Of a stretch of DNA of 64,000 bases, positions 1-14,456 are shown piece after piece; the first letter of the stretch is position 1, and each line of letters begins with the position of its first letter. The stretch lies in the NCBI GenBank assembly GCA_013166775.1, contig JABLTJ010000016.1:1-64000 (forward strand). Direction: 5' to 3'. Position numbers and translations under genes: made by a program. The DNA is from Promethearchaeati archaeon (GTDB taxonomy: Archaea > Asgardarchaeota > Heimdallarchaeia > Heimdallarchaeales > Heimdallarchaeaceae). The notes under the pieces were generated by a model. The model made no database searches and was not told the DNA's origin. It saw only the letters and a list, made by a program, of their open reading frames with translations.

Positions 1-1
1 C

Positions 2-1705
2 ATTTTTTTCAGTTTTATCGCATCTATTGTTGTATTAGGTGTTTTTACTCCTTCATTATTAGGTTTTGCTTACTATTATGGAATGAACCTGCTAATTAGC
101 TGTCTAATAGCAGTTTTTTATGGGAGTATTCAATTACTCATTCTGTCTAATCATTTAAAAGAGATATACAAAGAAGGTGAAAAAGAAGAAAATGTTCCTC
201 TTAACAAACTATCTAATTTTCTTAAAAAAATTCTTCCATGGATATTGTTTAATCTCTCTTTAGGATTTTCCTTCTTCTTCTTATTCTTTATAGGAATCGA
301 GAAGTTTGAGTTTGGTTCTATGATCTCATTAATTGTAATAACACTACTGTTTACTCTCTTTCTTAATATTATAATGTGGAAAAAAACTATACTATGGATA
401 GGAAAGAAAGTAATTTCTCTCTCATACTTTTTTTCAGAATTATCTAAACAAACTATCAAACTATCAAGGAGGTTAGTAAAGGACAGTTATCGTGTGATTC
501 AGTTACTCATTCTGTTTCTTATAATCTGTACTTTTTTCCTTTCAAGTTTTGATACTATAAATAACTTCAACTCTTTCAATGATGAACAAAATCAAGTTGG
601 GGAGATGATAATTAGTTTTCAACCTGAAAAAACGAATATTGTAAACGCTAACATAAGTGACTTAGTAGAGAGTTCAGTGGAAATTCAATCATCAACAACA
701 TTACTAGATAGTATCTCTATTGAAGCAAGTGGTGGAATTTCACGTTTAGTGGACATATATCTTATTAATAGCAGTAAAATACAACGGCTTTTCAATTCGA
801 TATCGATAAAGGAAAGATACGCAGGTAACTTTAATACCCAAGAAATTGCTAGCGAGTTAGAAACAAACCTGAATTCAGCTATTGTTAATAAAGCATTAGC
901 ACAATTATTATCCATTCAACTGCAAGGTTCATTTAACCTACCAATCCCTGTTGAAAATGACGAATATACTGATTCAAGAATAAATTATAGATTGTCTGCA
1001 CTTGATTCTGTTAGTTTTATTCCATTCTTTTCTGGTATTTCCTTGGAAAGACCATTTGCAATTTTAAATGATAAGACCATTTCTACTACAAATAATGCTT
1101 CTGTACAAACAGTTTATCAGATCTTATGGTTGAAAGAAACTATCTCAAAAGATGCATTCAACAAAAATATTCGAGCATTAAATGAAAACAGCTCTACTCA
1201 AATTGAGGTTGTAGAACAATTTGAGTTTCCTATAATTACAGATGATTATTGGGTACCTGCTGTTTTTCAACAATTTATGGTTTCTTTATTAACAGTTTTT
1301 GTTGTATGTTTATTCCTCTTCTTCTTAGCTTTCTATTCTGATACCATTGATAAACAGATGAAAGGATTTAGAATTTTCTTTGCTCGTGGATTATCTTTTA
1401 AGAAGGGAATCTCTCTTGTTATGTTACCGTTATTCTTATTTACATTGTTTTATATTATTTTTAGCTATGTAGTAGGTTTGATATTATCATTTGTGATGTT
1501 AACTGCAATTCAACCTAGATATTATCTAAGAATACGAATTTCTATTGTTCCTTTCTCATCCATCTTTCTGAGTTCTCAAATAATATTATTAGGGGCGATT
1601 CTCTTTGCTTCTGGGATTAGTTCTTATAGAAAATTGAGAAAGCAGATTCCTGAAGTTAAGTTCAATGTTCCTTCAGTTTTCCAAGAGGAGGAGAGTTTTA
1701 TTTGA
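2..1705 (+). CDS. FtsX/MacB-like ABC transporter permease (5'-partial)
   Basis: The frame of ORF 83..1705 stays open back to position 2 (IFFSFIASIVV...). Multiple TM segments, a large extracytoplasmic loop and a C-terminal FtsX-like 'FFARGLSFKK' segment. Operon with a LolD-type ATPase. Confidence 0.7.
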   Translation: MFFSFIASIVVLGVFTPSLLGFAYYYGMNLLISCLIAVFYGSIQLLILSNHLKEIYKEGEKEENVPLNKLSNFLKKILPWILFNLSLGFSFFFLFFIGIEKFEFGSMISLIVITLLFTLFLNIIMWKKTILWIGKKVISLSYFFSELSKQTIKLSRRLVKDSYRVIQLLILFLIICTFFLSSFDTINNFNSFNDEQNQVGEMIISFQPEKTNIVNANISDLVESSVEIQSSTTLLDSISIEASGGISRLVDIYLINSSKIQRLFNSISIKERYAGNFNTQEIASELETNLNSAIVNKALAQLLSIQLQGSFNLPIPVENDEYTDSRINYRLSALDSVSFIPFFSGISLERPFAILNDKTISTTNNASVQTVYQILWLKETISKDAFNKNIRALNENSSTQIEVVEQFEFPIITDDYWVPAVFQQFMVSLLTVFVVCLFLFFLAFYSDTIDKQMKGFRIFFARGLSFKKGISLVMLPLFLFTLFYIIFSYVVGLILSFVMLTAIQPRYYLRIRISIVPFSSIFLSSQIILLGAILFASGISSYRKLRKQIPEVKFNVPSVFQEEESFI

Positions 1706-4353
1706 AATTAACTAGACTCATCTTTAAAGCAAAAAAGAAGATTTTGCTAGTTGAATTATTCATAATAATTGCTATTTTTCTAGTTTCAAGTTTATCTTTT
1801 ACTTACTATTTGAATTCATATAGAACAGAATGGATAGGTTTAGTGAATTCTCACGACGAACCAGATTTACAAATTGAGCTTACACAACCCTTTTGGGTGT
1901 TTCTGGAGGGAAAAGATGATTTAAACGAAGAACTTGAAAACTTTCAGTATTTAGCTATAACGTCTCTTCCATCTCATTTATTTAAATTAGTATTTGAAAA
2001 TATCACCATCGAAGATTATAATTTATACATCCTCAATTCCGAAATACTGGAGTTTTTTGGATACGATCTTTCAGGTAATGAAACGTTATTAACAACAACT
2101 TACGAAAATAATATAGATTCAAGTGAAATTACTGCTAACTTTGTACTTCAATCCGGTTTAAGCAACACAACAATAACAGATATTTTCAACCAAACTTTAC
2201 TCTATAGTGCTATTTTCGGTTCTAGAAATATTGAGCATCTATCTACTTATGCTAATACTAGTCTTATACTGTCAGAATCCTATTTTAACAATCTTCTTTC
2301 ATCCATTGATGAAGCAACATTGTTAAACATTACACAAAACTTCCTCACTCATTCCTTTTACACTTTTTCCTGGAATAAATCAGAATTAATAAACGCCCTT
2401 CCCTCAAAGCTTTTTGAAATTCATAAAGAGTGGAATCATGAACGAATAGCAGTATTTTCACAGATGTATATACCAAATTATGTTCGATATGAGGAATTTA
2501 ATATTAGTGCAAATCAGATATTTTCTGACAAAATTAGTGATTTATTAACGGAATTAGACAGTATTCTAATAAGTACTATAATTATCCTCTTTTTTCTTTC
2601 CTTAACATCAATCATCTTCTTATTTCAGTTCCTAAGAAGTAGAACAGCTTTTTTCAGCAAAATTTCCTTGATTCTCTCATCAAGAGGATTAAAAGGAAAA
2701 TCTGTAAAATCGAGATTTTTAGTTCTACACTCTAGTACTCTATTATTTTCTATTACATTATTCTTTGGTTTTGTTTTGATCTTGTTATATTCTTATGAAC
2801 TTATTATGTGGAATTATTCTTATCTCGTCATAGGTGTTTCTACTAGTATAGTTTTCTTTTCACTTCTTACCATGCAAATCAAGCTAGTTCAAACATTAGA
2901 CATACAAACAAAAACAGAAGGAACAAAAAAGAGTTCTCGGTCAAGATCACAAATTATTGATTTTGGTCTTAAACTTGGTTTGGGATTGGTAATCTTTATA
3001 GCTTCAACCTCTATTCTTTCTTTCAATCAGTGGTTTCTTAATATTTTTTCCATAACTATCAGTACGTTATGGATAATAACTTGTAGTTTAAGCGGAGTGA
3101 TAGTTTTAATACTCCTCTTACCAACTCTCATTAGCAAACTAATCATTCCTTTAACAAAATTAATTCTAAGAAATTTCTCACATTTTCATTCCGCAGTATC
3201 AAGATTGTTTGAACAACTAGCTCGACAAAAAAGGATTGTATGGACAAGTATTTTCTTTCTTCAGATGCTTTTTTCTTTGATCATAATTGGTCCCAATCTA
3301 TTTATAACCCATCAAGAACAAACTGAATTAAGCTCATATTGTTATAATGTATCATTAGTGGTAGAAACTGAATCCGTATCTGAAATCCAAGATTTAGTTT
3401 GGAACAAACCTTCTATGATAGCTTACGTTGAGCCCATTTATATATCACAATTTCAGCGTAGGGATATCTATATTTACTTAGATGATCCTATGGCTTTTTT
3501 CAACGGTGTTCATTTCTTTGGAAATTATTTCAAGAAAAGGAGCAGTTCTCAAGTTTTTACCATGCTAAGTTCATCTAAAGACTTCTTTGTTACAACCCGT
3601 TTTAAGGCAGATGAGGGACAATTTAGCATAGGAGATTTAGTTAGTTTATACAAGAAAGATGTCAATGGTTCTAATATCGAGGAAAAGAAAATTCTATTAG
3701 ATATTGTTGATTTTCTCCCATTCTTCTCAATTTTCTTTGATGAAGAGTATATGAACATCTTTTTGATGAAATATGATGAATCTACACACATCTTAAACAA
3801 AAACCATTATGCAATATTCAGTTTTCAAGCCGAACAAGAAGCAGAGGAGGAGAATTTCTTTACAAACCTAAAAGAAGAGAATTTGATGTTTAATGTTATT
3901 CATAGTTTTTCTCAGTCTACACTAATACAGAATACTCAACCAAGCTTTGTCTTAAAAGTGTTAAAACTTCCAATTTACTTTCTTATCGTATTAATTCCAA
4001 GTTTAGTGTTTCTGCTCTTTTTTGATGTTAGAAAAAGAGGTACAGAATCATTTTCATTCTTAATTCGAAGAGGATTTCGTGGTAAAAATGCAAAATCACT
4101 AACATTCTATTGGTTTTTTATTCTATCTATTTTTCTAACTTTAATTTCATTTCTTTATTCAGTTTTAGTACTATTGCCAATGATTTTTATATTAAATTTA
4201 ACATATATTATGCCAATGCGATTAACCATTAATTGGATTTCATTGTTGATTGTTATCCCGATTCTATTTTCAGTATTTATGTTTCCAGTATCAATTAAAG
4301 AAGACAGCAAAATTAAATCACATCTCATGAAAAAACGGAGTAGAAATAAATGA
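1702..4353 (+). CDS. FtsX/MacB-like ABC transporter permease, two-repeat type
   Basis: 883 aa with two TM blocks, each containing an 'SRG/RRG' motif (LSSRGLKG, LIRRGFRG). TTGA overlap with the upstream gene and ATGA overlap with the downstream ATPase. Confidence 0.7.
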   Translation: MKLTRLIFKAKKKILLVELFIIIAIFLVSSLSFTYYLNSYRTEWIGLVNSHDEPDLQIELTQPFWVFLEGKDDLNEELENFQYLAITSLPSHLFKLVFENITIEDYNLYILNSEILEFFGYDLSGNETLLTTTYENNIDSSEITANFVLQSGLSNTTITDIFNQTLLYSAIFGSRNIEHLSTYANTSLILSESYFNNLLSSIDEATLLNITQNFLTHSFYTFSWNKSELINALPSKLFEIHKEWNHERIAVFSQMYIPNYVRYEEFNISANQIFSDKISDLLTELDSILISTIIILFFLSLTSIIFLFQFLRSRTAFFSKISLILSSRGLKGKSVKSRFLVLHSSTLLFSITLFFGFVLILLYSYELIMWNYSYLVIGVSTSIVFFSLLTMQIKLVQTLDIQTKTEGTKKSSRSRSQIIDFGLKLGLGLVIFIASTSILSFNQWFLNIFSITISTLWIITCSLSGVIVLILLLPTLISKLIIPLTKLILRNFSHFHSAVSRLFEQLARQKRIVWTSIFFLQMLFSLIIIGPNLFITHQEQTELSSYCYNVSLVVETESVSEIQDLVWNKPSMIAYVEPIYISQFQRRDIYIYLDDPMAFFNGVHFFGNYFKKRSSSQVFTMLSSSKDFFVTTRFKADEGQFSIGDLVSLYKKDVNGSNIEEKKILLDIVDFLPFFSIFFDEEYMNIFLMKYDESTHILNKNHYAIFSFQAEQEAEEENFFTNLKEENLMFNVIHSFSQSTLIQNTQPSFVLKVLKLPIYFLIVLIPSLVFLLFFDVRKRGTESFSFLIRRGFRGKNAKSLTFYWFFILSIFLTLISFLYSVLVLLPMIFILNLTYIMPMRLTINWISLLIVIPILFSVFMFPVSIKEDSKIKSHLMKKRSRNK

Positions 4354-5036
4354 GTAAAAAACAAGAGAAAATTATCCAGATTTTTGATTTACTTCATGTG
4401 TATAAAGGGAAAGTTGAAACCATCGCGCTTTCTGGAATAAATCTTTCTGTAACTAAGGGTGAAAGATTGGTTATCAGAGGAAAATCTGGTGTAGGGAAAA
4501 CTACTCTTTTACATTGTTTAGCAGGAATACTCAAACCTACAGCAGGTAAGATTTTAGTGGAGAAAAAGGACATAATAGATCTCAATGAAGATCAGCAAGC
4601 AGACTATAGATGTCAAACAGTTGGTCTAATCTACCAGTCCTACAATCTAGCTCCATTTCTTACAGTCAAAGAGAATATAGAATTCCCAATGATTTTAGCA
4701 AAAAAAACACAAGAAAAAATCGACAAACATGTAGATGAACTTACAGAGATTCTCGAGATTGAAAGGTATCTTGAGCAAAAACCAGAGTACCTGAGTGGAG
4801 GAGAACAACAAAGAGTAGCTATTGCAGTAGCTTTAGCCAATAATCCCCCAATAGTTCTCGCAGATGAACCCACTGGGAACATTGACGTAGAAACATCCCA
4901 AATCATTTACGAACATTTGTCAAGAATGTGCCAAGTTTATGGTACAACACTAATAATTGCATCACATGATCCAGATGCTTCTAAATATGCTGATAGAGAA
5001 ATTTTACTCACAAAACTGCAATCAAGAAACCTATAG
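4350..5036 (+). CDS. ABC transporter ATP-binding protein, LolD/MacB family
   Basis: Walker A GKSGVGKT, signature LSGGEQQRV, Walker [10 protein letters not shown]-loop SHD. Confidence 0.95.
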
Positions 5037-5164
5037 TTAGAGATTATAGGAAAACAAGTAAGTTCATTTGAAAATGAAATATTTATTCACTGATTATGTT
5101 TATAATATATTTCTACAGTTTTGGATTTATCTAATCTTTTAGTGAGTAAAAGTTTGTCATAAAA

Positions 5165-5430
5165 TTTCCTTGGGGTTTTTAGGGTGAAGTGTAGTCTAGT
5201 ATGCAGATAGGCAAGAATTACAACCGTAAAAGGCCCAAACCCGTAATTCTTCGCTTATCCCCTAAAAGGAAAAAGGAGTTGAAAGAGAAGAAGTATAAGT
5301 AGTTCTTTTGGGATCTTAATCGAATTCCTGACGCAATTATACACGTAGAACTGTCAGTGGTTCCTCTACTGGTTTAACAGAACAGACTAGAAGAGGAACC
5401 ATTGATGTTAACTAATTCGATTATGATTTT
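5165..5430 (+). ncRNA. Putative structured non-coding element upstream of tnpB (IS left end and/or ncRNA)
   Basis: Nested stems: 5177-5184/5260-5267, 5206-5212/5253-5259, 5213-5221/5243-5251, 5317-5326/5414-5423 (10 bp perfect) and 5353-5367/5392-5406 (15 bp, 2 G-T). G-T pairs favour folding of the + strand. Confidence 0.55.
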
Positions 5431-5467
5431 ACGTTTATTAAACTAACAATTTTAGGAGCTAAAACTC

Positions 5468-7036
5468 ATGAAAATTGAAAAAGAAAATAAACAAAAAGAA
5501 CTAAAAAATAGACTCAAGAAATATGAGAAGCAAGAAGAAGCTACAAGCACACTTCAAGCACCATCTATCTCTGGTTACTATCATGTTAAGATTAGGATAA
5601 AAACAGAACGGATGACTGCTCAAGAGTGCGATAGGTTGAGAATAATTACCAACCGAGATACAAGAATCATCAAAGACTACCTAAGAATCATCTATCACAA
5701 CGAGGAAAAAATTCTACGAAACGATAGTAAAGTCGCTAAAACTCAATTGGATAAATTGACTTTAACAACTTCTAAGAAAACGCAACACAAGTTACGGACA
5801 ACTGTTCCTCACGACTTAAAGAAAAGTTATCCTCGCTGTTCACATGATGAATTCATCGAATGCAGAGATAAAGCTATCTGGACTTATGAAAGTTGGAAAG
5901 CACAACAAAAACAATCCAAAGAGGATCTGAGTAGACCACAATTCAAGAAAAAAACTCCCAGAATATATTACAAAGGATTAGAACATAGAGGTACGTTTCG
6001 AGTGATACCCACTCCTGATAATACCTTAGCTAAACTTTGGCTAGATTTAAGGGATTCTCTTGATACGAAACGTTCTGGTAGAACAAATCATAAGCGACTG
6101 ATGCTACCATTAGCTTATTCACCTTATCACAAAAAGAAGCTGATACTAGATAATGTCAAAACGTTAGAACTAGTATATAAATCCAAAGAGCAACAGTGGT
6201 GTGCACATTTCACCCTCCAATATACTGTCCCTCTTTACCAATCTACACAACCACCCGCAGTGTTGGGAGTTGATTTAGGAATAAAGAAGACAGCGGTTGC
6301 AGTATTACTTACCCCCACAGGTAAAGTGATCATGGAAGAACTCTGTTTCATTGTCAATAAGGAAAGACAAGCTAAGATGTGGAGACTAGAAAAACAGATT
6401 AAATCTATTCAGAGAGAGTTAGATACAAGGAATTACAATGGTCAACCCCATAAACAGCTTAACGTCAAACTCTACCAACTACGTAGAAGACTTCGCTCTG
6501 TTACACAACAAGAACTGGGATATGCAGTTAACCAACTCGTTGATTTCATTCTCCAGTTGAAGAAACAGTATAATCTGTTTGTGTCAGTTGGCTATCCTAA
6601 GTACATTCGGAAAAGTCAGCCTCGTGGAAGTGGAAACAAATCCTTACGTCGTCAACTACATAAGTGGTGTTATCGCCTCTTTATAACCAAACTACAGCAC
6701 AAACTAACACAGCATGGATTTGAACCCCATCGAGTCGTTGCAGTCAATGAAAGCTGGACCTCCCAACGATGTTCAAAGTGTAATTCGCTTAACACTACTC
6801 GAACAAAACAAGGAAAGTTCAATTGCCACGATTGCAACTACGAAATCAATGCTGATTTGAACGGAGCAAGAAACATAGGAAAAAGGTTGATCAAATATGC
6901 GTTGAAACCAGAGCATGGTTATACTAGTATTCGAGATACACTAACAAATGACTACCACTCTCTAAAGCTATACAAATGCCTCCAACCCTTAAGTCAGTGG
7001 CTTAAGTATTCTGTGAAGAATTTATCGTCTCGTTAG
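5468..7036 (+). CDS. tnpB: TnpB-family RNA-guided endonuclease with rearranged RuvC active site
   Basis: RuvC-I LGVDLG (D269), RuvC-II position VSVGYP (G375), VNESWTSQRC (E428), Zn ribbon CSKC...CHDC, RuvC-III NADLNGARNI (D463). SD-like AGGAG upstream. Confidence 0.92.
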   Translation: MKIEKENKQKELKNRLKKYEKQEEATSTLQAPSISGYYHVKIRIKTERMTAQECDRLRIITNRDTRIIKDYLRIIYHNEEKILRNDSKVAKTQLDKLTLTTSKKTQHKLRTTVPHDLKKSYPRCSHDEFIECRDKAIWTYESWKAQQKQSKEDLSRPQFKKKTPRIYYKGLEHRGTFRVIPTPDNTLAKLWLDLRDSLDTKRSGRTNHKRLMLPLAYSPYHKKKLILDNVKTLELVYKSKEQQWCAHFTLQYTVPLYQSTQPPAVLGVDLGIKKTAVAVLLTPTGKVIMEELCFIVNKERQAKMWRLEKQIKSIQRELDTRNYNGQPHKQLNVKLYQLRRRLRSVTQQELGYAVNQLVDFILQLKKQYNLFVSVGYPKYIRKSQPRGSGNKSLRRQLHKWCYRLFITKLQHKLTQHGFEPHRVVAVNESWTSQRCSKCNSLNTTRTKQGKFNCHDCNYEINADLNGARNIGKRLIKYALKPEHGYTSIRDTLTNDYHSLKLYKCLQPLSQWLKYSVKNLSSR

Positions 7037-7039
7037 ATT

Positions 7040-7270
7040 CGATAGGATAGGTAGAGAATCTATCATCTACTTAGATTCAATAGATTCAGTAATGAGTTCC
7101 CTCTCGTAACGAGAAATGATTCCTTTGAACAGATTTGCATCATTGTATGCCTCTGTTCCAGAAGACTAGTAACTGCTTACACTATGAATCGATTATCTTT
7201 TCATTTTGTACAGTTTTGCTACAATGTAGAAACCTATTTCTGCATTCATTCTACACTGGTTTAGGAGGAG
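7040..7270 (+). ncRNA. Putative omegaRNA/reRNA scaffold plus guide
   Basis: Directly 3' of tnpB. Stems 7056-7062/7072-7078, 7102-7106/7110-7114, 7127-7133/7152-7158, 7169-7172/7177-7180 and 7223-7232/7237-7246. TnpB guide RNAs are known to derive from the element right end. Confidence 0.6.
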
Positions 7271-7436
7271 TCTCGAAACGACCTTCACAAGAACTGCAAA
7301 GTTTTTGGGAAGAGAATAACTCATCGTAACTTCTGTCAACTCTTGTAATACCATATTCCTCAAAAATATCGTCTTCTTTCTTCCCTTTTTTTCTTTTTTT
7401 TACTTGCATAATCGTTTTTTTTGAGAAAAGCTTCAT
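7251..7436 (-). CDS. Small hypothetical protein with a basic patch, a copy of the Vps22-like C-terminal segment and CxxC
   Basis: 61-aa ORF. FEEYGITRVDRSY matches FEENGIARVDRSY of the adjacent EAP30 protein. TATA-like element near 7461-7470 on the minus strand. Confidence 0.45.
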   Translation of the reverse strand: MKLFSKKTIMQVKKRKKGKKEDDIFEEYGITRVDRSYDELFSSQKLCSSCEGRFETPPKPV

Positions 7437-7508
7437 TCATTATGAATTCCTAGCATAATTCAATATAATCTCTTGAAATATGGTAAACTAAATGGAGCTA
7501 AATTCTAC

Positions 7509-7535
7509 GATTTTCAAGCGACTTACTTGAAAATC
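7509..7535. terminator. Perfect 10-bp inverted repeat downstream of the ESCRT-II gene (terminator or operator)
   Basis: GATTTTCAAG-N7-CTTGAAAATC, about 20 nt past the stop of 7557..8291. Confidence 0.4.
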
Positions 7536-7556
7536 ATCAATAGTTTTGAGAAGTGA

Positions 7557-8291
7557 TTAACTTATCAACCCAGGGAACCAATATTTCGTCCCTGCTGCAT
7601 AACTTCTGTCTACTCTTGCTATCCCGTTTTCCTCAAAGAAAGTTAAGCATCTATCAATACGCTCTTCGTTCCAGTCTGTTCTCATTAACAAATCTTCTTT
7701 TGTAACATATCCTTCACGTGAAGCATAATTTAGGATAACATCATGGTCTTGACTGAACTCTACAGTAGTAAATTCAACTATCTTAGTTCCTGATTCAAGA
7801 GTCTTGTACGGAGAAATAAGTTGAGCATTTATTAGTTTCTCCAGTGATCGATACATATCATCAATCGAAACCATCTTTCCTGGACGAGTTTTGTTTAACT
7901 GAGTGAATAACTCACCTAATGACATTATTCCCCCATTTTCAGGTGTAAGTTTTTGACCTAGCTCGATAATTTCATTTGCCAAAATGTCATAAAAACCTCT
8001 ACCTGTAAGTTTGTCTTTTAGAGTGGGGGTTTCCTGCCAATCAAAACGTCCAATTTCCATGGGTAAACCAAGTTCTTTTCTTAAATCAGCAAGTTTTTCA
8101 TAATAATCTTTGTTTTCAGTTATTTTATCACCAAATTTCTTCTCAAATTTCTTCAATTGTTTTTTAATTTCTCCAATATTCCCTATCATTTGCTCTAATT
8201 CTTTAATCATCAATTCTGCATCTTTAACTTGGAATGCTGATTTAACCTTGATTTTTTTCTCTATGTCTCGTAATCCCAATTCAATCTCCAA
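7557..8291 (-). CDS. ESCRT-II subunit, EAP30 domain (Vps22/Vps36-like)
   Basis: FYDILANEIIELGQKLTPENGGIMSLGEL, VSIDDMYRSLEKL, WNEERIDRCL and terminal GIARVD...YWFPGL follow the Vps22/SNF8 tandem winged-helix pattern. ESCRT-I and ubiquitin context. Confidence 0.9.
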   Translation of the reverse strand: MEIELGLRDIEKKIKVKSAFQVKDAELMIKELEQMIGNIGEIKKQLKKFEKKFGDKITENKDYYEKLADLRKELGLPMEIGRFDWQETPTLKDKLTGRGFYDILANEIIELGQKLTPENGGIMSLGELFTQLNKTRPGKMVSIDDMYRSLEKLINAQLISPYKTLESGTKIVEFTTVEFSQDHDVILNYASREGYVTKEDLLMRTDWNEERIDRCLTFFEENGIARVDRSYAAGTKYWFPGLIS

Positions 8292-8364
8292 CTATTTATT
8301 GTCTAGCAATTATTTATATCTTCGCAAATCTAAAACACTTCTTTCAACATTACTTTACTTAAAT

Positions 8365-8679
8365 TTAAATCAAACCTGGTAATGATTGTATCCAACTCAT
8401 TATTTTACTAACAAGATGATTTGCTTCTCTGGGGGTTAAAAACGAAGCTAGTTTGTTTTCATATTTATTGTACAATGAATTATAAACATCTCTCATCTCT
8501 ATTCCCATATTAGAACCGATTTCACTCATTTTTTGAACTTCATATGATAATTCCTCTATTTCTTCGAGGATATATCCTATGTCGATTTTTATCTCAATCA
8601 TATTTACAAGTTCAAATAAATCCTTCCTTATGTTGATGAACATAGTATTGAGAACATTTCTCTTATCCAAGAAATTCAC
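8365..8679 (-). CDS. Hypothetical helical protein, possibly a stand-alone Vps28 C-terminal-domain homologue
   Basis: About 100 aa, four amphipathic helices that align by eye with the last ~95 aa of the upstream ESCRT-I protein. The start may be the TTG 9 nt downstream (AGGTGA SD-like motif). Confidence 0.55.
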   Translation of the reverse strand: MNFLDKRNVLNTMFINIRKDLFELVNMIEIKIDIGYILEEIEELSYEVQKMSEIGSNMGIEMRDVYNSLYNKYENKLASFLTPREANHLVSKIMSWIQSLPGLI

Positions 8680-8749
8680 CTTGTTATTCTGACCTCATGG
8701 AGTGAAAGAAAAAGAAAATCGCATAAACTACATAACATCGTTATTGCCA

Positions 8750-10159
8750 TTACAATTCTTTCAAAACTCTTCTGAAATCATTAAGCCATCGAGCTGCTTG
8801 AAATTCTAGTTTTTCACAATCTTCTTCTTTTATTACATCTTGAGGTTTGTATTTTGACAGAATGTCTCGCCAATTATTTAAATCCCCTATTACCCAATGA
8901 TCTTCAGGTATGGATGGAAATGTTTTCAAGATATGAAGCATTTCATCAATATCTGCTAATAACAAATCTGCTCGAGCTACTGAACGTAGTCTTGTTAGAT
9001 CTATCAATTCAATCGCAGAAGAAACAAAATCTGCTGTTTTAGAAGGCATCTTCTTCAGAGTATCAAATGGTATGGAAACTGCTTCTGTTGTTTCAACTCC
9101 TTCTGCAACTCGCAGTTGTCTTATACCTTCAGAATATCTTTCATCCAATTTTTCTCGCTTAACGAATTCTTCAAGGTTGAATCCTGTTTTCTCTAATTGC
9201 ATTCGAGCTTTGAATATTCCTCTTAATAGCGATCTAAGTTGTTTTCTATATGCAATTTGCTCAACTTCGTTATTTTCAAAACCTTGAGTTAAATTATCTA
9301 GGGTTACAATTGAAGCAAATAAATCAGCTTCTAATTCAAGTATTTTTTCTTCTTCTTTTGTCATACCATCACTTTTGTCAACTCTAATTTTGTTAAGCTG
9401 TTTCTCAGCTTTATAACCTTTTTTAGAGTATCTTCTATGAAGTTTGTAAAAGTCTAAATTTGTTAAATCTCCATCTTCAAATTTCTCCTGAATTGTCTCA
9501 AGAGTATCCTCTATAGCATTAACTTCAGCTTTTAGATTATCCTCTCTTGATATGGGAATTTCTTTTGTCTCAATTTTAACTCCCCCTTCCTTCAGAAGAG
9601 CTTCTCTTTCTTTTTCTATGTTCCTGCTAATGTTTTCAATCTCTTTTTGATAATCGACAATCGATTTTTCTATTGATCGCTTTTCTTCACTTATTTTTAG
9701 ATCAACTTCTGGAGCCTTAGCTTGAACTAGAGGAAGCTGTCTTGTTGGAATTGGATATACTTGAAGCGTAGATTCACGTTCTTCTTTTTTTACTCTTTTC
9801 ACTTTAGTTTTATATGCTCTTGCAGGAACTTTAGTGAAAAGATCTTGTATATCATTTATCACTTCATATATGTTGTAGTTTTTTTTCCAATTAGATAGAA
9901 TCCGTAAGCTTAAAGTTTCATTATCTTCAACATTAGGATGGTTAACTTTCGGTGTAATGTCTACAAAGGGTGGAATATCAGGAAAACCATCTTGAATCCA
10001 GATATTTGCAAAAATAGGTATCTCTGTTCCTTCAATTATACCTACAAAACCTTTCCAATGTTTAAGATTACCTCTAACTGGTTCAAATCCTGACGCGTTT
10101 TCATAAATTAACTGTGCTTCATTTGCGAGGAGGAAATCATCTGTGGATATTTGTCTCAC
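8750..10159 (-). CDS. ESCRT-I fusion protein: UEV domain + coiled coil + Vps23 steadiness box + Vps28
   Basis: UBC fold (FPDIPPFV, HPNV..ETLSLRIL with Ser at the E2 catalytic Cys position). Steadiness box IEDTLETIQEKFEDGDLTNLDFYKL. Vps28 N-terminus ADLFASIVTLDNL...Y...LRSLL. Vps28 four-helix CTD. Confidence 0.88.
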   Translation of the reverse strand: MRQISTDDFLLANEAQLIYENASGFEPVRGNLKHWKGFVGIIEGTEIPIFANIWIQDGFPDIPPFVDITPKVNHPNVEDNETLSLRILSNWKKNYNIYEVINDIQDLFTKVPARAYKTKVKRVKKEERESTLQVYPIPTRQLPLVQAKAPEVDLKISEEKRSIEKSIVDYQKEIENISRNIEKEREALLKEGGVKIETKEIPISREDNLKAEVNAIEDTLETIQEKFEDGDLTNLDFYKLHRRYSKKGYKAEKQLNKIRVDKSDGMTKEEEKILELEADLFASIVTLDNLTQGFENNEVEQIAYRKQLRSLLRGIFKARMQLEKTGFNLEEFVKREKLDERYSEGIRQLRVAEGVETTEAVSIPFDTLKKMPSKTADFVSSAIELIDLTRLRSVARADLLLADIDEMLHILKTFPSIPEDHWVIGDLNNWRDILSKYKPQDVIKEEDCEKLEFQAARWLNDFRRVLKEL

Positions 10160-10239
10160 CTTATTTCTATATCTCTAATAAATCATGGCTATCAAACTTT
10201 AAAAAATATTGCATTCAAGAACCACTATTTTATAATCAA

Positions 10240-11247
10240 CTAAAGCTTTTCTATTTTTATAACAATTTTAATTGGTTTTGCTAGATTTTTATCTAAAATA
10301 TATGCAACAGATTTTTCCTTTAACTGATTTTCAACAACGTTTTTACCTTCTAATAATTTTCCCTCAACCATTAAATCAGGTTTCTCTAAACCATAAGTTA
10401 ATGCTAATCTAAGCATAAGGTCTTTGATTGTTTCAGTAGGATGAGCAACAAATTCAATCTGTTCTAATTTGTACAATTCTCCGCAAGCTGGGCAATCTTC
10501 TGTTCTTGCTAATGGAATGATAGTAGTTGCATTATTGAGACCATCATAGAACATATAGTTCTCTAGAGGTGCTCCTAATTCAAGGATGAGTTTTAGAGAT
10601 TCTTGAGCTATCATCCCACCAATAATACTTGATAATGTTGCCACAGCAGGTAGTTTAGCTTCTACCTCTTCTTCTTCTCCTCTATCCTTTTTCCTTTCTT
10701 CACCAAAGGGAGTACATGCTTGTGCTAGTTCTTCATCTGGTACTAAAGGCTGACATTCAAAACATGCAGTTTTATATGGGATAATTACTTGTACATCACC
10801 TAAAAATGCGAACATTCCTCCTAGTATAAGGGGCTTTTTTACTCTTATTGCCATAGAACTTATCCATCTTCTACCAATGAACGTATCAAGGCAACCAATA
10901 ATTACATCTGCCTTCTCATATACTGAAGCTTTGACTTCTTCCATTTTTTTATGATAAAACTCTATCTCTATCTCTGGGTTAATCTCCTTTAGTCTTTTAG
11001 AAGCTACTTCCGCTTTAGGTTTTCCTAGATCCTCCTCACGAAAGAGTAGTTGTCGATTTAAGTTGGAAAGTTCAATTGAATCAAATTCAATAATAACAAG
11101 CTTTCCGATGCCTGAAGATGCTAAAATAGTAGCAACATAACTACCTATTGCTCCTACTCCTATAAGAATAACAGTACTGTTATCCAATGTTGTTTGGTCC
11201 CATCCTGGAATAAGTGATTGACGAGAGTATCTGTTATCATCTGGCAT
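10240..11247 (-). CDS. Ubiquitin-activating E1-like enzyme (ThiF/MoeB domain + catalytic Cys + C-terminal ubiquitin-fold domain)
   Basis: RYSRQ, GVGAIG, SNLNRQLLF, Zn pairs CFEC/CPAC, additional ACT Cys in the crossover loop. Adjacent to ubiquitin. Confidence 0.92.
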   Translation of the reverse strand: MPDDNRYSRQSLIPGWDQTTLDNSTVILIGVGAIGSYVATILASSGIGKLVIIEFDSIELSNLNRQLLFREEDLGKPKAEVASKRLKEINPEIEIEFYHKKMEEVKASVYEKADVIIGCLDTFIGRRWISSMAIRVKKPLILGGMFAFLGDVQVIIPYKTACFECQPLVPDEELAQACTPFGEERKKDRGEEEEVEAKLPAVATLSSIIGGMIAQESLKLILELGAPLENYMFYDGLNNATTIIPLARTEDCPACGELYKLEQIEFVAHPTETIKDLMLRLALTYGLEKPDLMVEGKLLEGKNVVENQLKEKSVAYILDKNLAKPIKIVIKIEKL

Positions 11248-11400
11248 AAAGGCGCACCTTTAATCAATATCTTTCTTACTGAAACTGATATATGTTTCTT
11301 TTCAATCTAACAATCTATAGAAAATAATGAAATTATAGTTAAAAATAACGTAGAATGATGCTTTTGATCGTTTAACAAAAGTGGAGAAGTAATTGTCTGA

Positions 11401-11637
11401 TTAAAAACCACCTTTGGTTCTTGCAATCAAATAGCACTTGTCTCCGTCCATCATACCTGTCTGTTTTAAAATTTCACTGTCATCAAGTTGTTTTCCGTGA
11501 AAAACAATGATAACTGTATTAGCGGGTATTTTTTTCTTCTTCGCTACTTCTCTTTTTAATTGAGCCACTGTTGAATGTGGATCTACATCTAGTTCGATTG
11601 ACCCTCCACCGATAGCTGTTACTACTGAAATACGCAT
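11401..11637 (-). CDS. Ubiquitin-like protein (eukaryote-type), C-terminus GG-F
   Basis: MRISVVT...VFHGKQLDD...LIARTKGGF aligns with ubiquitin (IFAGKQLED, LVLRLRGG). Start moved to ATG 11637. Confidence 0.93.
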   Translation of the reverse strand: MRISVVTAIGGGSIELDVDPHSTVAQLKREVAKKKKIPANTVIIVFHGKQLDDSEILKQTGMMDGDKCYLIARTKGGF

Positions 11638-11752
11638 TTTATCAAACACCAAATTCTTTCTACTTTTTTATTGACTTATTCATTATTAAAGCTTACCAAA
11701 TTGTTTTGTGAATAAAAGTGCAAAAAATCAAAACAAAAAACTGAATTATACA

Positions 11753-12142
11753 TTATTTTACAGATCTCTTCTTTTCTCCCTTTCTTTTAATTGTAATAGA
11801 TGGTGGAATACCTTCTATATCTCTCTCTAATTTCTTAATTCCTATTCTTGTAACTTGCTTTCCTTCCATGAAACCTATTTTTATCATATAAAGAACGTTC
11901 TTGAAAATCGTTTCTGCTGTCTGTTTTTTATCCGAACTCTCGTATAATTGTATCCAATACTCATATGCTTCTGGTACTAGAAAAAATTGCATCAGCGCTA
12001 ACTTATCTTTCTCTTCTACGCTTTTTGGAGCTTCTTCTGCTTCTTTTAATTCTTCCATTCTTCTCTTTCTCTGTTCTGCGATTCTTAGAAGCTCTTGGGT
12101 TTTTTTTTCCCTAATTTTTTCTAATTCCTTATCTTCTGTCAT
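11753..12142 (-). CDS. PDCD5-like (dsDNA-binding domain) protein, divergent
   Basis: N-terminal DKELEKIREKK, L.PEA motif, C-terminal ITIKRK typical of the PDCD5/MTH1615 family. Confidence 0.65.
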   Translation of the reverse strand: MTEDKELEKIREKKTQELLRIAEQRKRRMEELKEAEEAPKSVEEKDKLALMQFFLVPEAYEYWIQLYESSDKKQTAETIFKNVLYMIKIGFMEGKQVTRIGIKKLERDIEGIPPSITIKRKGEKKRSVK

Positions 12143-12305
12143 ATCACTACACTATCATTATGAGACTGCTCACGTAGCATTTAAGTTTACTTTTCTTAAA
12201 CATAAACCAACATTCAATTCATATTTTTTAAATAAAAGAAATGCTTGGGAAAACATTATATTATGTCTTCAAACCCCTTTATTGAAATTTATCAGAGTTG
12301 ATGAA

Positions 12306-13736
12306 ATGGATTTGGCTATTGTAAATGCTTGGATTTTAACTCTTGCGAAAAACAGGCTAGGCATAATTAAAAATGGAACTATTGGGATAGAAGGAGATAG
12401 AATAGGTTTTATTGGGTCTACAGACGATATTGACACAAAGAAAATTGATGTAATTATTGATGGTAAAAATCACTTAGTTATGCCTGGTTTGGTTAACTCT
12501 CACATTCATACTAGTTTAACACTCTTGAGAGGGGGAGCTCAAGATTTACCTGAAATAGAATGGATGAATAAAGGAATAGGACCCTTAGCTAAGCATTTAG
12601 ATTCAAAGGATCTAATTCTTGGTTCAAAACTTGGTGTGCTAGAAGCAATAAAGACTGGTACTACAACTTTTTCTGAATATACTAGAGATGTTGCAAGATT
12701 AGTTGAACAAGTTTACCTACCTATAGGTGCCCGAGTTGTAGCTACTGAAACGATTAACGAAGTAGCCCAGGTTAATAAAGCCGCTTTGAAGCCTTCTGAT
12801 CTTTATGAATTTGATAATAAGAAGGGACAACAAGCTTTAACTAAGAATGACCAATTATTTGAAAAATACAAAAACAAACCTTTAGTTAGTTGTATGTATG
12901 GGCCTCAAGCACTCGATATGGTGTCTTTAGATACTTTGAAAACTATAAAAGAAAACGCTATTTCTAGAAATAGTAAAATTCATATGCATGTTGCACAGGG
13001 GAAAAGAGAAAGATTACAAATAACTGGAAGATTTGGAAAAGATGCTTCAACTGTAAAAGTATTAGATAATCATGAGCTTTTAGATAATTATTTAGTAGCT
13101 GTACATTGTCACGATACAGAAGAGCAAGAAAGAGAACTTATGGTCTCAAAAAATGTAAAAATGGTGGGATGTCCGAGCTCTATTAGTATTATCGATGGCA
13201 TTATCCCTCCTATTTATCATTATTTCAGTTTAGGAGGGAAAGTAGGGATTGGAACTGATCAAGCTCCAGGTCCAGGAAATCATAACCTCTTTAGAGAAAT
13301 GAGAACTATTAGTCTTCTCACAAAAACGCAATTTAGAGATCCAACGGCTTTTCCTTCATGGCAAATGTTATTTTTAATTACTATTTTCGGAGCAGAGATT
13401 CTTGGATTGGAAAAAGAAATAGGTACATTGGAAATCGGTAAAAGAGCAGACGTTATTTCTTTTGATATGAATAATCTACTTCTAACTCCAATGGTATCGA
13501 ATCCTTTCCATAATTTTATACCTAATTTAGTACATTCAGCAACTGGAACAGAAGTAGATAATGTGATAATCGATGGTAAACTAATCATCCATCAAAGAAA
13601 ATTCACATCTATTAATGAACAAAAAATAATTGACGAAGCAAATAAAAGAGCAGAAAAAATCTTCGCTGATGCTTCAGATGATTGGAAAGCCGCAGGATCA
13701 CAAATGGTAAAAGATGTAGAAAAAGGTTTGATATAA
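12306..13736 (+). CDS. Metal-dependent amidohydrolase, MtaD/SsnA/TrzA-like
   Basis: MPGLVNSHIH, HMHVAQ, AVHC, GTD, GTLEIGKRAD. True start is probably MDLAIVNAW at 12306; the longer ORF is an antisense overlap with the PDCD5-like gene. Confidence 0.88.
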   Translation: MDLAIVNAWILTLAKNRLGIIKNGTIGIEGDRIGFIGSTDDIDTKKIDVIIDGKNHLVMPGLVNSHIHTSLTLLRGGAQDLPEIEWMNKGIGPLAKHLDSKDLILGSKLGVLEAIKTGTTTFSEYTRDVARLVEQVYLPIGARVVATETINEVAQVNKAALKPSDLYEFDNKKGQQALTKNDQLFEKYKNKPLVSCMYGPQALDMVSLDTLKTIKENAISRNSKIHMHVAQGKRERLQITGRFGKDASTVKVLDNHELLDNYLVAVHCHDTEEQERELMVSKNVKMVGCPSSISIIDGIIPPIYHYFSLGGKVGIGTDQAPGPGNHNLFREMRTISLLTKTQFRDPTAFPSWQMLFLITIFGAEILGLEKEIGTLEIGKRADVISFDMNNLLLTPMVSNPFHNFIPNLVHSATGTEVDNVIIDGKLIIHQRKFTSINEQKIIDEANKRAEKIFADASDDWKAAGSQMVKDVEKGLI

Positions 13737-13742
13737 CCTACT

Positions 13743-14456
13743 TTACCTGTTATCGTTGTTTATTGGAAGGTATTGTTCTACAGAAAGATATCTTGTAAGG
13801 ACGTTGAATTTTTCTGCGTAACCAACTCCACAACGCAATCCATCTGCATGTTTCATAGTGTTTATCCAATCATTTACTCTTTCCCATTTATAGAAATCTC
13901 CATATAATTTTGCTACTTTTTGAACTTTCTCAAAATTTTTACTAATATCAATATAGATAACAGGTAATGTGGAAAATTCCTCATAGTATAGAAACATTGG
14001 AATGTGCAAAGGAGGTCGATGTGGGGCAATAGAGCCTGTAATATGTGGTATTCTTGCATAAGTTATAGCATCGCAAATTATTTGTGCTGTACCACGATGA
14101 TCTGGGTGTCTTGTATTTAACGACCAAGTAATAACTGCATCTGGTTTTATCTCTGCTACCACTTTTGTCATTTTCAAAGCATTTTCTCTGGTTGATCTTA
14201 CGTGTGTATCACCATAATCCAAAAAAAGTGTTTCACATCCTACAATCTCCCCTACTTCTCTACCTTGTTCTTCTCGGATTTTTTTTACTTCATCAAACTC
14301 CATTCCATTAAAATGAGATGCCATTTCACCACTTGTGGTCCATGCTAAAACTACACGATCACCTCTGTCAACGTGATTACAAAGACTCCCTATACTAGAA
14401 ATTTCGTCATCAGGATGAGCAAAACAAGCAAAGATGGTTTTTTTTTCTTCAGTCAT
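13743..14456 (-). CDS. PIG-L/LmbE family deacetylase
   Basis: AHPDDE, TSGE, HPDH motifs. Confidence 0.9.
   Translation of the reverse strand: MTEEKKTIFACFAHPDDEISSIGSLCNHVDRGDRVVLAWTTSGEMASHFNGMEFDEVKKIREEQGREVGEIVGCETLFLDYGDTHVRSTRENALKMTKVVAEIKPDAVITWSLNTRHPDHRGTAQIICDAITYARIPHITGSIAPHRPPLHIPMFLYYEEFSTLPVIYIDISKNFEKVQKVAKLYGDFYKWERVNDWINTMKHADGLRCGVGYAEKFNVLTRYLSVEQYLPINNDNR

Follow-up and report, generated by a model that had tools for sequence, protein, structure and literature searches.

A conserved structured spacer between a HerA/FtsK-type ATPase gene and a RuvC-II-rearranged tnpB gene in Heimdallarchaeaceae

Cas12 descends from TnpB, a compact enzyme for genome editing. The RNA known to work with TnpB is located at the 3′ end of the gene, and the partners known for TnpB are transposases. 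We analysed a tnpB locus in a stretch of 64,000 nt from a Promethearchaeati archaeon (assembly GCA_013166775.1, contig JABLTJ010000016.1, positions 1 to 64,000 of the forward strand; hereafter the window), whose host group is the archaeal group closest to eukaryotes. An earlier note, made from the letters alone, had described this locus as a stand-alone TnpB flanked on both sides by large structured non-coding segments. Comparison with related copies showed that positions 5127–7324 correspond to the right-hand module of a two-gene unit of the Heimdallarchaeaceae, in which the ATPase gene is reduced to about 35 nt. From the same comparison, the full unit comprises, in this order, a promoter block, an ATPase gene, a spacer of ~305 nt, a RuvC-II-rearranged tnpB gene and a right end of ~290 nt. 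The features of the module in the window are the following:

5127–5162, + strand: 3′-terminal remnant of a group-B HerA/FtsK-like ATPase gene, about its 11 last codons and the stop codon TAA (5160–5162)
5161–5430, + strand: conserved structured spacer
5166–5171/5273–5278, + strand: helix P1 of the spacer fold
5206–5221/5243–5259, + strand: helix H1 of the spacer fold
5286–5292/5303–5309, + strand: helix P3 of the spacer fold
5312–5326/5414–5428, + strand: helix P4 of the spacer fold
5353–5375/5384–5406, + strand: helix P5 of the spacer fold (H2), with the invariant core GGTTCCTCT/AGAGGAACC
5433–5467, + strand: candidate tnpB expression signals, TATA-like GTTTATTAA (5433–5441) and Shine-Dalgarno-like AGGAG (5454–5458), before the ATG at 5468
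5468–7036, + strand: tnpB, encoding a RuvC-II-rearranged TnpB of 522 aa with a Cys4 zinc finger (CxxC..CxxC)
7010–7324, + strand: omegaRNA scaffold and right end, beginning within the 3′ end of tnpB, with 288 nt beyond the stop codon
7325–7366, + strand: guide position, a diverged duplicate of the 3′-end codons of the EAP30/ESCRT-II gene, with its counterpart at 7598–7640
7386–7401, + strand: T7 and T8 runs, 62 nt past the right end, a candidate archaeal oligo-T terminator

The link to the ATPase gene was seen in many copies, where a co-directional open reading frame (ORF) of ~790–915 aa ending in ..LMxKDLS* stops exactly at the start of the conserved non-coding segment. The encoded protein carries transmembrane (TM) helices at its N-terminus and has a P-loop core of the DUF87/HerA type that gave TrwB-like and CedD-like matches (Pfam DUF87, E 1e-11 to 1e-13; NCBIfam CedD, E 1e-10), an organization that it shares with archaeal CedD/VirB4/HerA/FtsK-type ATPases. 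Its conserved, Cys-bearing C-terminal module is encoded directly upstream of the spacer. The remnant in the window shares the ..LMxKDLS* codons that end the full-length ATPase ORFs of loci L059, L060, L061 and L062, and it is identical at 39/45 nt to the 3′ end of an intact ATPase gene on another contig of the same genome (G000:C1:284011–286755). In total, at least six distinct intact ATPase–spacer–tnpB units with differing flanking genes were found in the Heimdallarchaeaceae, always with a constant gap of 300–307 nt between the two ORFs. These are L059/L084, L062/L073, L060/L067, L061/L068, L147 and L149/L150, L156 and L158 being further assemblies of two loci already counted. On the left they share a limit, a block of ~70 nt that precedes the ATPase start and contains a TATA-like box. 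Other copies retain ATPase C-terminal remnants of 38–84 aa or, as in the window, just 10–35 nt. The description of the locus as stand-alone applies to the window but not to the family, since in the family the spacer lies between a HerA/FtsK-like ATPase gene and tnpB.

Two groups of these ATPases are present in the genus. Group A is a single-copy core gene, whereas the TnpB-linked partner belongs to the multi-copy group B, which is 39–44% identical to group A (52–100% within group B) and differs in this from the archaeal CedD-type core ATPase. The intact group-B gene of this genome sits at the end of contig C1 and is followed by the first ~11 nt of the spacer, after which the sequences diverge. 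This gene and the unit in the window were probably contiguous in the past and were split by at least 6.4 kb, including the ABC-transporter genes. Two other genomes show a similar separation, with a group-B ATPase gene and a 'solo' tnpB in the same orientation and the ATPase gene 6.8 or 9.4 kb upstream. In the literature searched, we found no description of a linkage between group-B ATPases and TnpB, and the word 'ATPase' is absent from the main text of the TnpB census PMC10691335, in which the RNA is placed downstream of TnpB. It is the conserved 5′ structure and the ATPase linkage that are new here; a TnpB with a 3′ RNA is of an already-known type.

To the right of the ATPase codons, the fold of 5161–5467 reached −86.6 kcal/mol on the + strand (z-score −4.46, with 0/100 shuffles equal), against a z-score of −1.9 on the − strand. 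Covariation was evaluated by projecting nine helices from the window fold onto a MAFFT alignment of 19 distinct spacer copies. The 68 pairs of the fold were kept across this alignment, with 89.5% of cells paired, compared with 34–54% when the partners were slid. The number of compensatory cells (34) exceeded that of the shuffled alignments (18.6 ± 2.9; 0/500), and the covariation score was 0.183 versus 0.152 in the shuffles (0/500). Many G·U pairs were fixed among the copies; together with the strand-asymmetric fold they support folding of the + strand, as the earlier note had read from the G-T pairs of the single sequence. The note had also suggested that homologues be aligned and Rfam be searched. 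The upstream stems proved to be conserved with compensatory changes, and Rfam returned only chance-level matches and no group I intron for 4900–7700 at permissive thresholds (E up to 10), so that no family was matched by the upstream segment. The nine central pairs of H2 were invariant in the 19 copies, whereas its loop, its outer part and the neighbouring helices vary or covary; this suggests sequence-specific recognition of the H2 stem. Two unpaired motifs, AAATTTC and GCAATTnTACAC, were invariant as well, and GTTTAT and AGGAG were kept before tnpB. Among the candidates that we discarded were a K-turn or C/D-box seen by eye in the internal loop between P4 and P5, where CUGA varies among copies; group II intron boundaries (GUGYG), which are unconserved; and short direct repeats at 5016–5034 and 5110–5123 versus 7205–7237, which are non-colinear and were treated as chance. 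A pattern scan of the metagenome with the spacer motif gave a single match (L145), also judged to be chance.

When 47 genomes of the order were searched at the DNA level, the upstream segment was detected in 14, this one included, almost all of one genus, and only beside tnpB or as truncated remnants. One such remnant, at positions 5396–5626 of L041 (G020:C73), contains the first 234 nt of the spacer (86%) at 2.3 kb from a complete unit, with no tnpB after it. Among the intact tnpB genes of the clade that were examined, all those that a contig end does not truncate retain the complete spacer, including those that have lost the ATPase gene. In the 17 copies that were fetched, homology on the left starts around 5131–5154 and on the right stops at 7324; per copy, the left limit varies from 10 nt to the entire ATPase gene, and the right end is sharp. 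The TnpB elements of more remote clades (44% and 37% identical; Thorarchaeota) are simple and ~1.8 kb long, with left ends of 85–190 nt, no ATPase and no such fold; the spacer of the window is 1.6 to 3.6 times longer than these left ends. The statement that the upstream structure is much larger than a simple left end was thus correct, and the distinct element architecture that had been proposed is borne out by the conservation of the fold, its compensatory changes and its clade-specific length. In the clade with 44% identity (L079, L081, L082, L089, L119), TTTTCCCCACTTT in the left end and AAAGTGGGGAAAA in the right end are reverse complements of each other, a subterminal inverted repeat that was not seen in the clade of the window.

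This genome carries a second copy on contig C93 (G000:C93:9304–11651; L002, L057), with two in-frame TGA stops, plus two fragments. The C93 copy includes 190 nt of the left flank of the unit in the window, among them the final 70 nt of the ABC-transporter ATPase gene, and stops exactly at the right end. Between it and the copy in the window, identity is 97% in the spacer and 75% in the coding sequence (CDS), and the shared tract extends left to 4967. We take this high spacer identity to be the product of local conversion or duplication and not of extra constraint. The same recent conversion, together with a spacer that across species is no better conserved than the CDS, is what one would expect if the upstream fold were a relic with no function, conserved because it spread recently and underwent gene conversion. 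We consider this very improbable, since units with ATPases of only 53–57% identity retain the helices through compensatory and wobble changes, the length of the gap is constant and no intact tnpB copy examined has lost the spacer.

The right end of the unit is, as far as its sequence features go, an ordinary, canonical omegaRNA: the scaffold overlaps the 3′ end of the gene and has a sharp border to a variable guide. Homology in all copies ends abruptly after TAACTCAT at 7324, placing the start of the guide at 7325. RNAalifold predicted 63 pairs on 15 right-end copies, 22 of them with compensatory changes, and an invariant long-range helix, ATGAGT (7092–7097) with ACTCAT (7319–7324), closes the scaffold directly before the guide, while entire hairpins are gained or lost from copy to copy. 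The downstream fold (7037–7300) has a z-score of −2.5 on the + strand and −1.8 on the − strand. The downstream structured part predicted in the earlier note is therefore real; its proposed extent of about 210 nt, to 7270, falls 54 nt short of the actual end, as 288 nt lie between the stop codon and 7324. The terminal ..TCAT is common to two sister clades, and the left flanks and right-end termini together point to TCAT/CAT as a putative target-adjacent motif (TAM). A contig from an RNA library covers 7096–7335, although DNA carry-over is possible. We propose that a sense transcript running through the 3′ end of tnpB and the right end would yield an omegaRNA closed by the ATGAGT:ACTCAT helix, with a guide read from the flank from 7325 onward, and that this transcript would probably stop at the T-runs near 7386–7401. 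Runs of 6 or more T were found within 100 nt past the right end in 9/14 distinct copies, compared with 11% of random 100-nt genome windows; they sit 18–77 nt past the right end (window, L043, L045, L048, L053, L054, L056, L152 and L155), in flanks that are 60–73% pyrimidine. They could represent a terminator of the guide transcript or a target preference.

The 522-aa ORF was correctly recognized as TnpB in the earlier note: it matched the Pfam Cas12f1-like TNB domain (E 1.5e-15) and NCBIfam guided_TnpB (7.7e-27; 94.5 bits, slightly below the cut-off of 100 bits). It has D269, G375 at the canonical position of the RuvC-II Glu, an alternative E428 (NESWTS) and D463 (NADLNGA); in an alignment with 24 relatives, D269, E428, D463 and the four Cys were invariant or nearly so (90% or more). 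The three catalytic acidic residues and the zinc finger of a RuvC-like nuclease are thus present, with the Glu relocated. These features are those of the RuvC-II-rearranged class reported by Altae-Tran et al. (PMC10691335), which is probably active. A Gly at the RuvC-II Glu position, an alternative Glu ~50 residues downstream, an NADxN RuvC-III motif and a retained zinc finger are shared with the RuvC-II-rearranged branches of that 2023 study and with Fanzor1-type sites. Compared with sister clades that lack the spacer, the clade of the window has ~35 additional Lys/Glu-rich residues at the N-terminus of TnpB. As had been noted from the sequence, no tnpA, cas genes or array accompany tnpB: Y1 TnpA (PF01797) had no match in the genome, which is 88.7% complete; no CRISPR or tandem array was found in positions 1–14000; and the neighbours scanned were ABC-transporter and ESCRT genes and included no cas genes, so neither the array nor the nearby cas1, cas2 or cas4 of a type V CRISPR-Cas system was found. 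The genome has two serine-recombinase (Resolvase) genes (G000:C65:89645–90064 and C80:26358–26801), possible IS607-type transposases acting in trans.

In several respects the module resembles elements of the IS200/IS605 type (IS1341-like, ISDra2 type), with a single tnpB, a scaffold that overlaps the 3′ end of the ORF, a sharp right border, a guide read from the flank, TCAT common to the right end and the left flank, and several copies per genome. Unlike them, it has a relocated catalytic Glu, a conserved structured left part of 307 nt in place of a short end, a variable stretch of the ATPase gene to its left, no Y1 TnpA that we could find in the genome and no right-end counterpart of the H2 hairpin. 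IscB/OMEGA and Cas9-type loci are comparable in that extensive structured non-coding sequence precedes their nuclease ORF on the sense strand. However, the scaffold of IscB adjoins a variable guide at the transposon end, whereas the spacer is bordered by conserved sequence on either side (to the left, ATPase codons; to the right, TATA, Shine-Dalgarno and ATG), with no hypervariable stretch, and a complete omegaRNA lies 3′. Neither an adjoining variable guide nor an anti-repeat, as expected of an IscB-like upstream omegaRNA or a tracrRNA-like element, was found for the spacer. IStrons are group I introns fused to the tnpB of IS605 or IS607, and in them, too, tnpB is preceded within the element by several hundred nt of structured RNA. 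The spacer differs from them: it matches no group I intron, it has only ~7 helices, arranged in two domains, and the element ends in T (..CAT) instead of the terminal G of the intron. Aloposons (Wu et al. 2022, PMC8813620) were ruled out as unrelated elements with giant genes.

No complementarity of 14 nt or more was found between the spacer (5146–5467) and the right end (7010–7324). With the conserved borders, this leaves a second guide scaffold or a tracrRNA-like partner unsupported; the right-end RNA, which closes on itself, likewise speaks against the suggested second scaffold piece. A broader version, in which an independent RNA from the spacer would act in trans as a further component of the TnpB (or ATPase–TnpB) ribonucleoprotein, serving as scaffold piece or linking platform, is in our view unlikely. 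It draws on the size, conservation and clade-specificity of the fold, on its invariant unpaired motifs, on the extra N-terminal TnpB residues, found in the spacer-bearing clade only, and on ATAAAAT at the 5′ edge of the spacer, which could be a TATA box. On the other hand, the omegaRNA is structurally complete by itself, no variable guide adjoins the spacer, and the spacer was not seen as an independent gene away from tnpB.

Taken together, the reading that we favour, with about even confidence and from sequence comparison, is a conventional TnpB with a right-end omegaRNA, the spacer being a cis-acting leader or intercistronic RNA combined with the left end, and not a guide scaffold. That the spacer belongs in cis to tnpB is indicated by the constant gap between the intact ATPase ORF and tnpB; that it is not a guide scaffold, by the closing helix, the covarying pairs and the sharp boundary of the right end. 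The spacer would be a cis-acting element, folding on the + strand and travelling with tnpB, with the tnpB promoter and Shine-Dalgarno sequence at its 3′ edge. It would most likely act as a structured leader or an intercistronic RNA, merged with the left end of the element; a regulatory leader was among the roles proposed in the earlier note. The H2 hairpin may be a sequence-specific protein site that controls TnpB expression or the processing of the ATPase–tnpB transcript. The TATA-like box at 5433–5441 is a putative tnpB promoter element; sister TnpB clades have TTTTTATAGG at a comparable distance from the ATG. The promoter, the terminator and the protein binding at this locus are predictions of the same kind.

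Several observations weigh against this reading. If the box at 5433 is indeed the tnpB promoter, the fold lies upstream of the start of the mRNA and could not act as a leader. Regarding covariation, pairs with double changes numbered 13 versus 11 in the shuffles, a value reached by 95/500 of them, and the number of pair types was reached by 123/500; moreover, the 19 copies are mutually related, and the statistics overstate their independence. In four RNA runs (contigs only), the tnpB CDS and the right end were partly covered, the CDS by metatranscriptome contigs from two studies, with possible DNA carry-over, and nothing was obtained on 5146–5395, which is uninformative either way and unusable as evidence. 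Finally, a conserved hairpin of the + strand would fit single-stranded DNA as well as RNA.

This last point leads to the main rival of the leader or intercistronic RNA, a role of the spacer as DNA, to which we give a low but real probability. The spacer would then be a left end or recombination site, or a loading site for the FtsK/HerA-like ATPase, with H2 bound as a hairpin or as a duplex; the clt site recognized by the Streptomyces TraB protein offers an analogy for such a loading site. Consistent with this, the H2 stem is invariant in 19/19 copies while its loop and neighbouring helices vary, the conserved Cys-bearing module of the ATPase is encoded directly upstream, and TCAT (5157–5160) directly precedes the spacer and also ends the right end, with ..CAT up to the border at the left flank of the sister clades. 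Furthermore, in three genomes 6–9 kb of other genes lie between the group-B ATPase gene and the spacer, as if DNA entered there. Nevertheless, conserved G·U pairs and strand-asymmetric folding are unfit for a duplex site, the right end has no H2-like hairpin (unlike the paired end hairpins of IS200/IS605), the Y1 transposase was not found, and the left ends are not sharp, ranging from 10 nt to the whole ATPase gene.

A more ambitious arrangement would combine a membrane-anchored HerA/FtsK-type motor, a 5′ RNA of ~270 nt with H2 as a coupling platform, and the rearranged-site TnpB with its omegaRNA in a single three-part system. We regard it as doubtful. Should it be true, the system could take up or transfer DNA under RNA guidance, or copy gene islands to targeted sites, and the layouts of ATPase, cargo and TnpB in three genomes would be its footprints. 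If, conversely, the spacer does no more than serve as an expression leader, what remains is an ordinary non-autonomous TnpB element whose left end is unusual. What sets the clade apart is its large covarying 5′ structure and its tie to a membrane DNA-motor ATPase; in this genome, in addition, the unit lies at the margin of an apparent gene island, and its guide was copied from the host gene next to it. The locus is thus a testable case of TnpB units that gain extra parts and perhaps move cargo.

The genes on either side of the unit are these:

4350–5036, + strand: ABC-transporter ATPase gene, left neighbour
7557–8291, − strand: EAP30/Vps36-like ESCRT-II gene, right neighbour

A UEV-Vps28 gene is also among the neighbours. 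These ESCRT-type genes identify the host as an Asgard archaeon, and protein relatives carry a Heimdallarchaeaceae annotation. In 13/13 relatives examined, EAP30 and a gene that we call geneX (..IIQFEADKVF*) are convergent neighbours, 25–35 nt apart. In this genome, a 24-nt duplicate of the EAP30 3′ end comes after geneX (C1:276405–277169), and foreign, accessory-type genes (NYN, SAP, DUF7019, HEPN) come next. Three DNA runs (X1–X3) contain 87–93% of the window. Assuming that contigs C1 and C27 (that of the window), which are not joined in the assembly, are contiguous, an island of at least 18 kb appears to separate geneX from EAP30 (C1:277170–288008 plus window 1–7540). Its apparent content is the NYN-like, SAP, DUF7019 and HEPN genes, the group-B ATPase gene, an ABC-transporter pair and the TnpB unit, whose right end lies near the right edge of the island (~7540 on C27).

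The native 3′ end of EAP30 in element-free relatives (L196–L218), ..AAACTCAT followed by CAG.., resembles the terminus of the right end, TAACTCAT, perhaps as a target motif. In this genome the gene ends (window 7541–7565) in ..AACTTAT followed by CAA..., with TTAT where the closest relatives have TCAT. We had considered the 25 nt before the EAP30 stop as a remnant of a right end (19/24 nt alike) and rejected this, since the element-free relatives share the sequence.

These data bear on another explanation, a homing island that works as a drive module. The EAP30-derived guide would direct a cut at the island-free junction of geneX and EAP30, repair would copy the island, the resident EAP30 would be protected by its changed bases, and the spacer would be an expression region. 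Both the convergent arrangement in the relatives and the 24-nt copy between geneX and the foreign DNA fit this scheme, as does the TTAT of the resident EAP30. A further point in its favour is the diverged copy of EAP30 codons, 38–42 nt long, directly past the right end (7327–7364 and 7600–7637 match at 84%, 273 nt apart). However, the near-target at 7598 is mismatched at guide positions 2 and 14 (of the first 20 nt past the right end, compared with the native EAP30) and is preceded by ..GCTG, with no TCAT/CAT motif in register. In addition, each sampled island-free allele has 4 or more mismatches to the guide over 20 positions, the three other right-end guides of the genome have no second genomic match above chance, the junction of C1 and C27 is not assembled, and a further 174 nt lie between the EAP30-like patch and EAP30. 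With this balance, we find the homing island improbable.

Two minor observations concern the sequence past the right end. An ORF of 61 aa (7251–7436, − strand) includes the EAP30-like patch and runs into the right end. Positions 13–30 past the right end match G000:C90:7893–7910 exactly over 18 nt (E 0.002), which may be chance.

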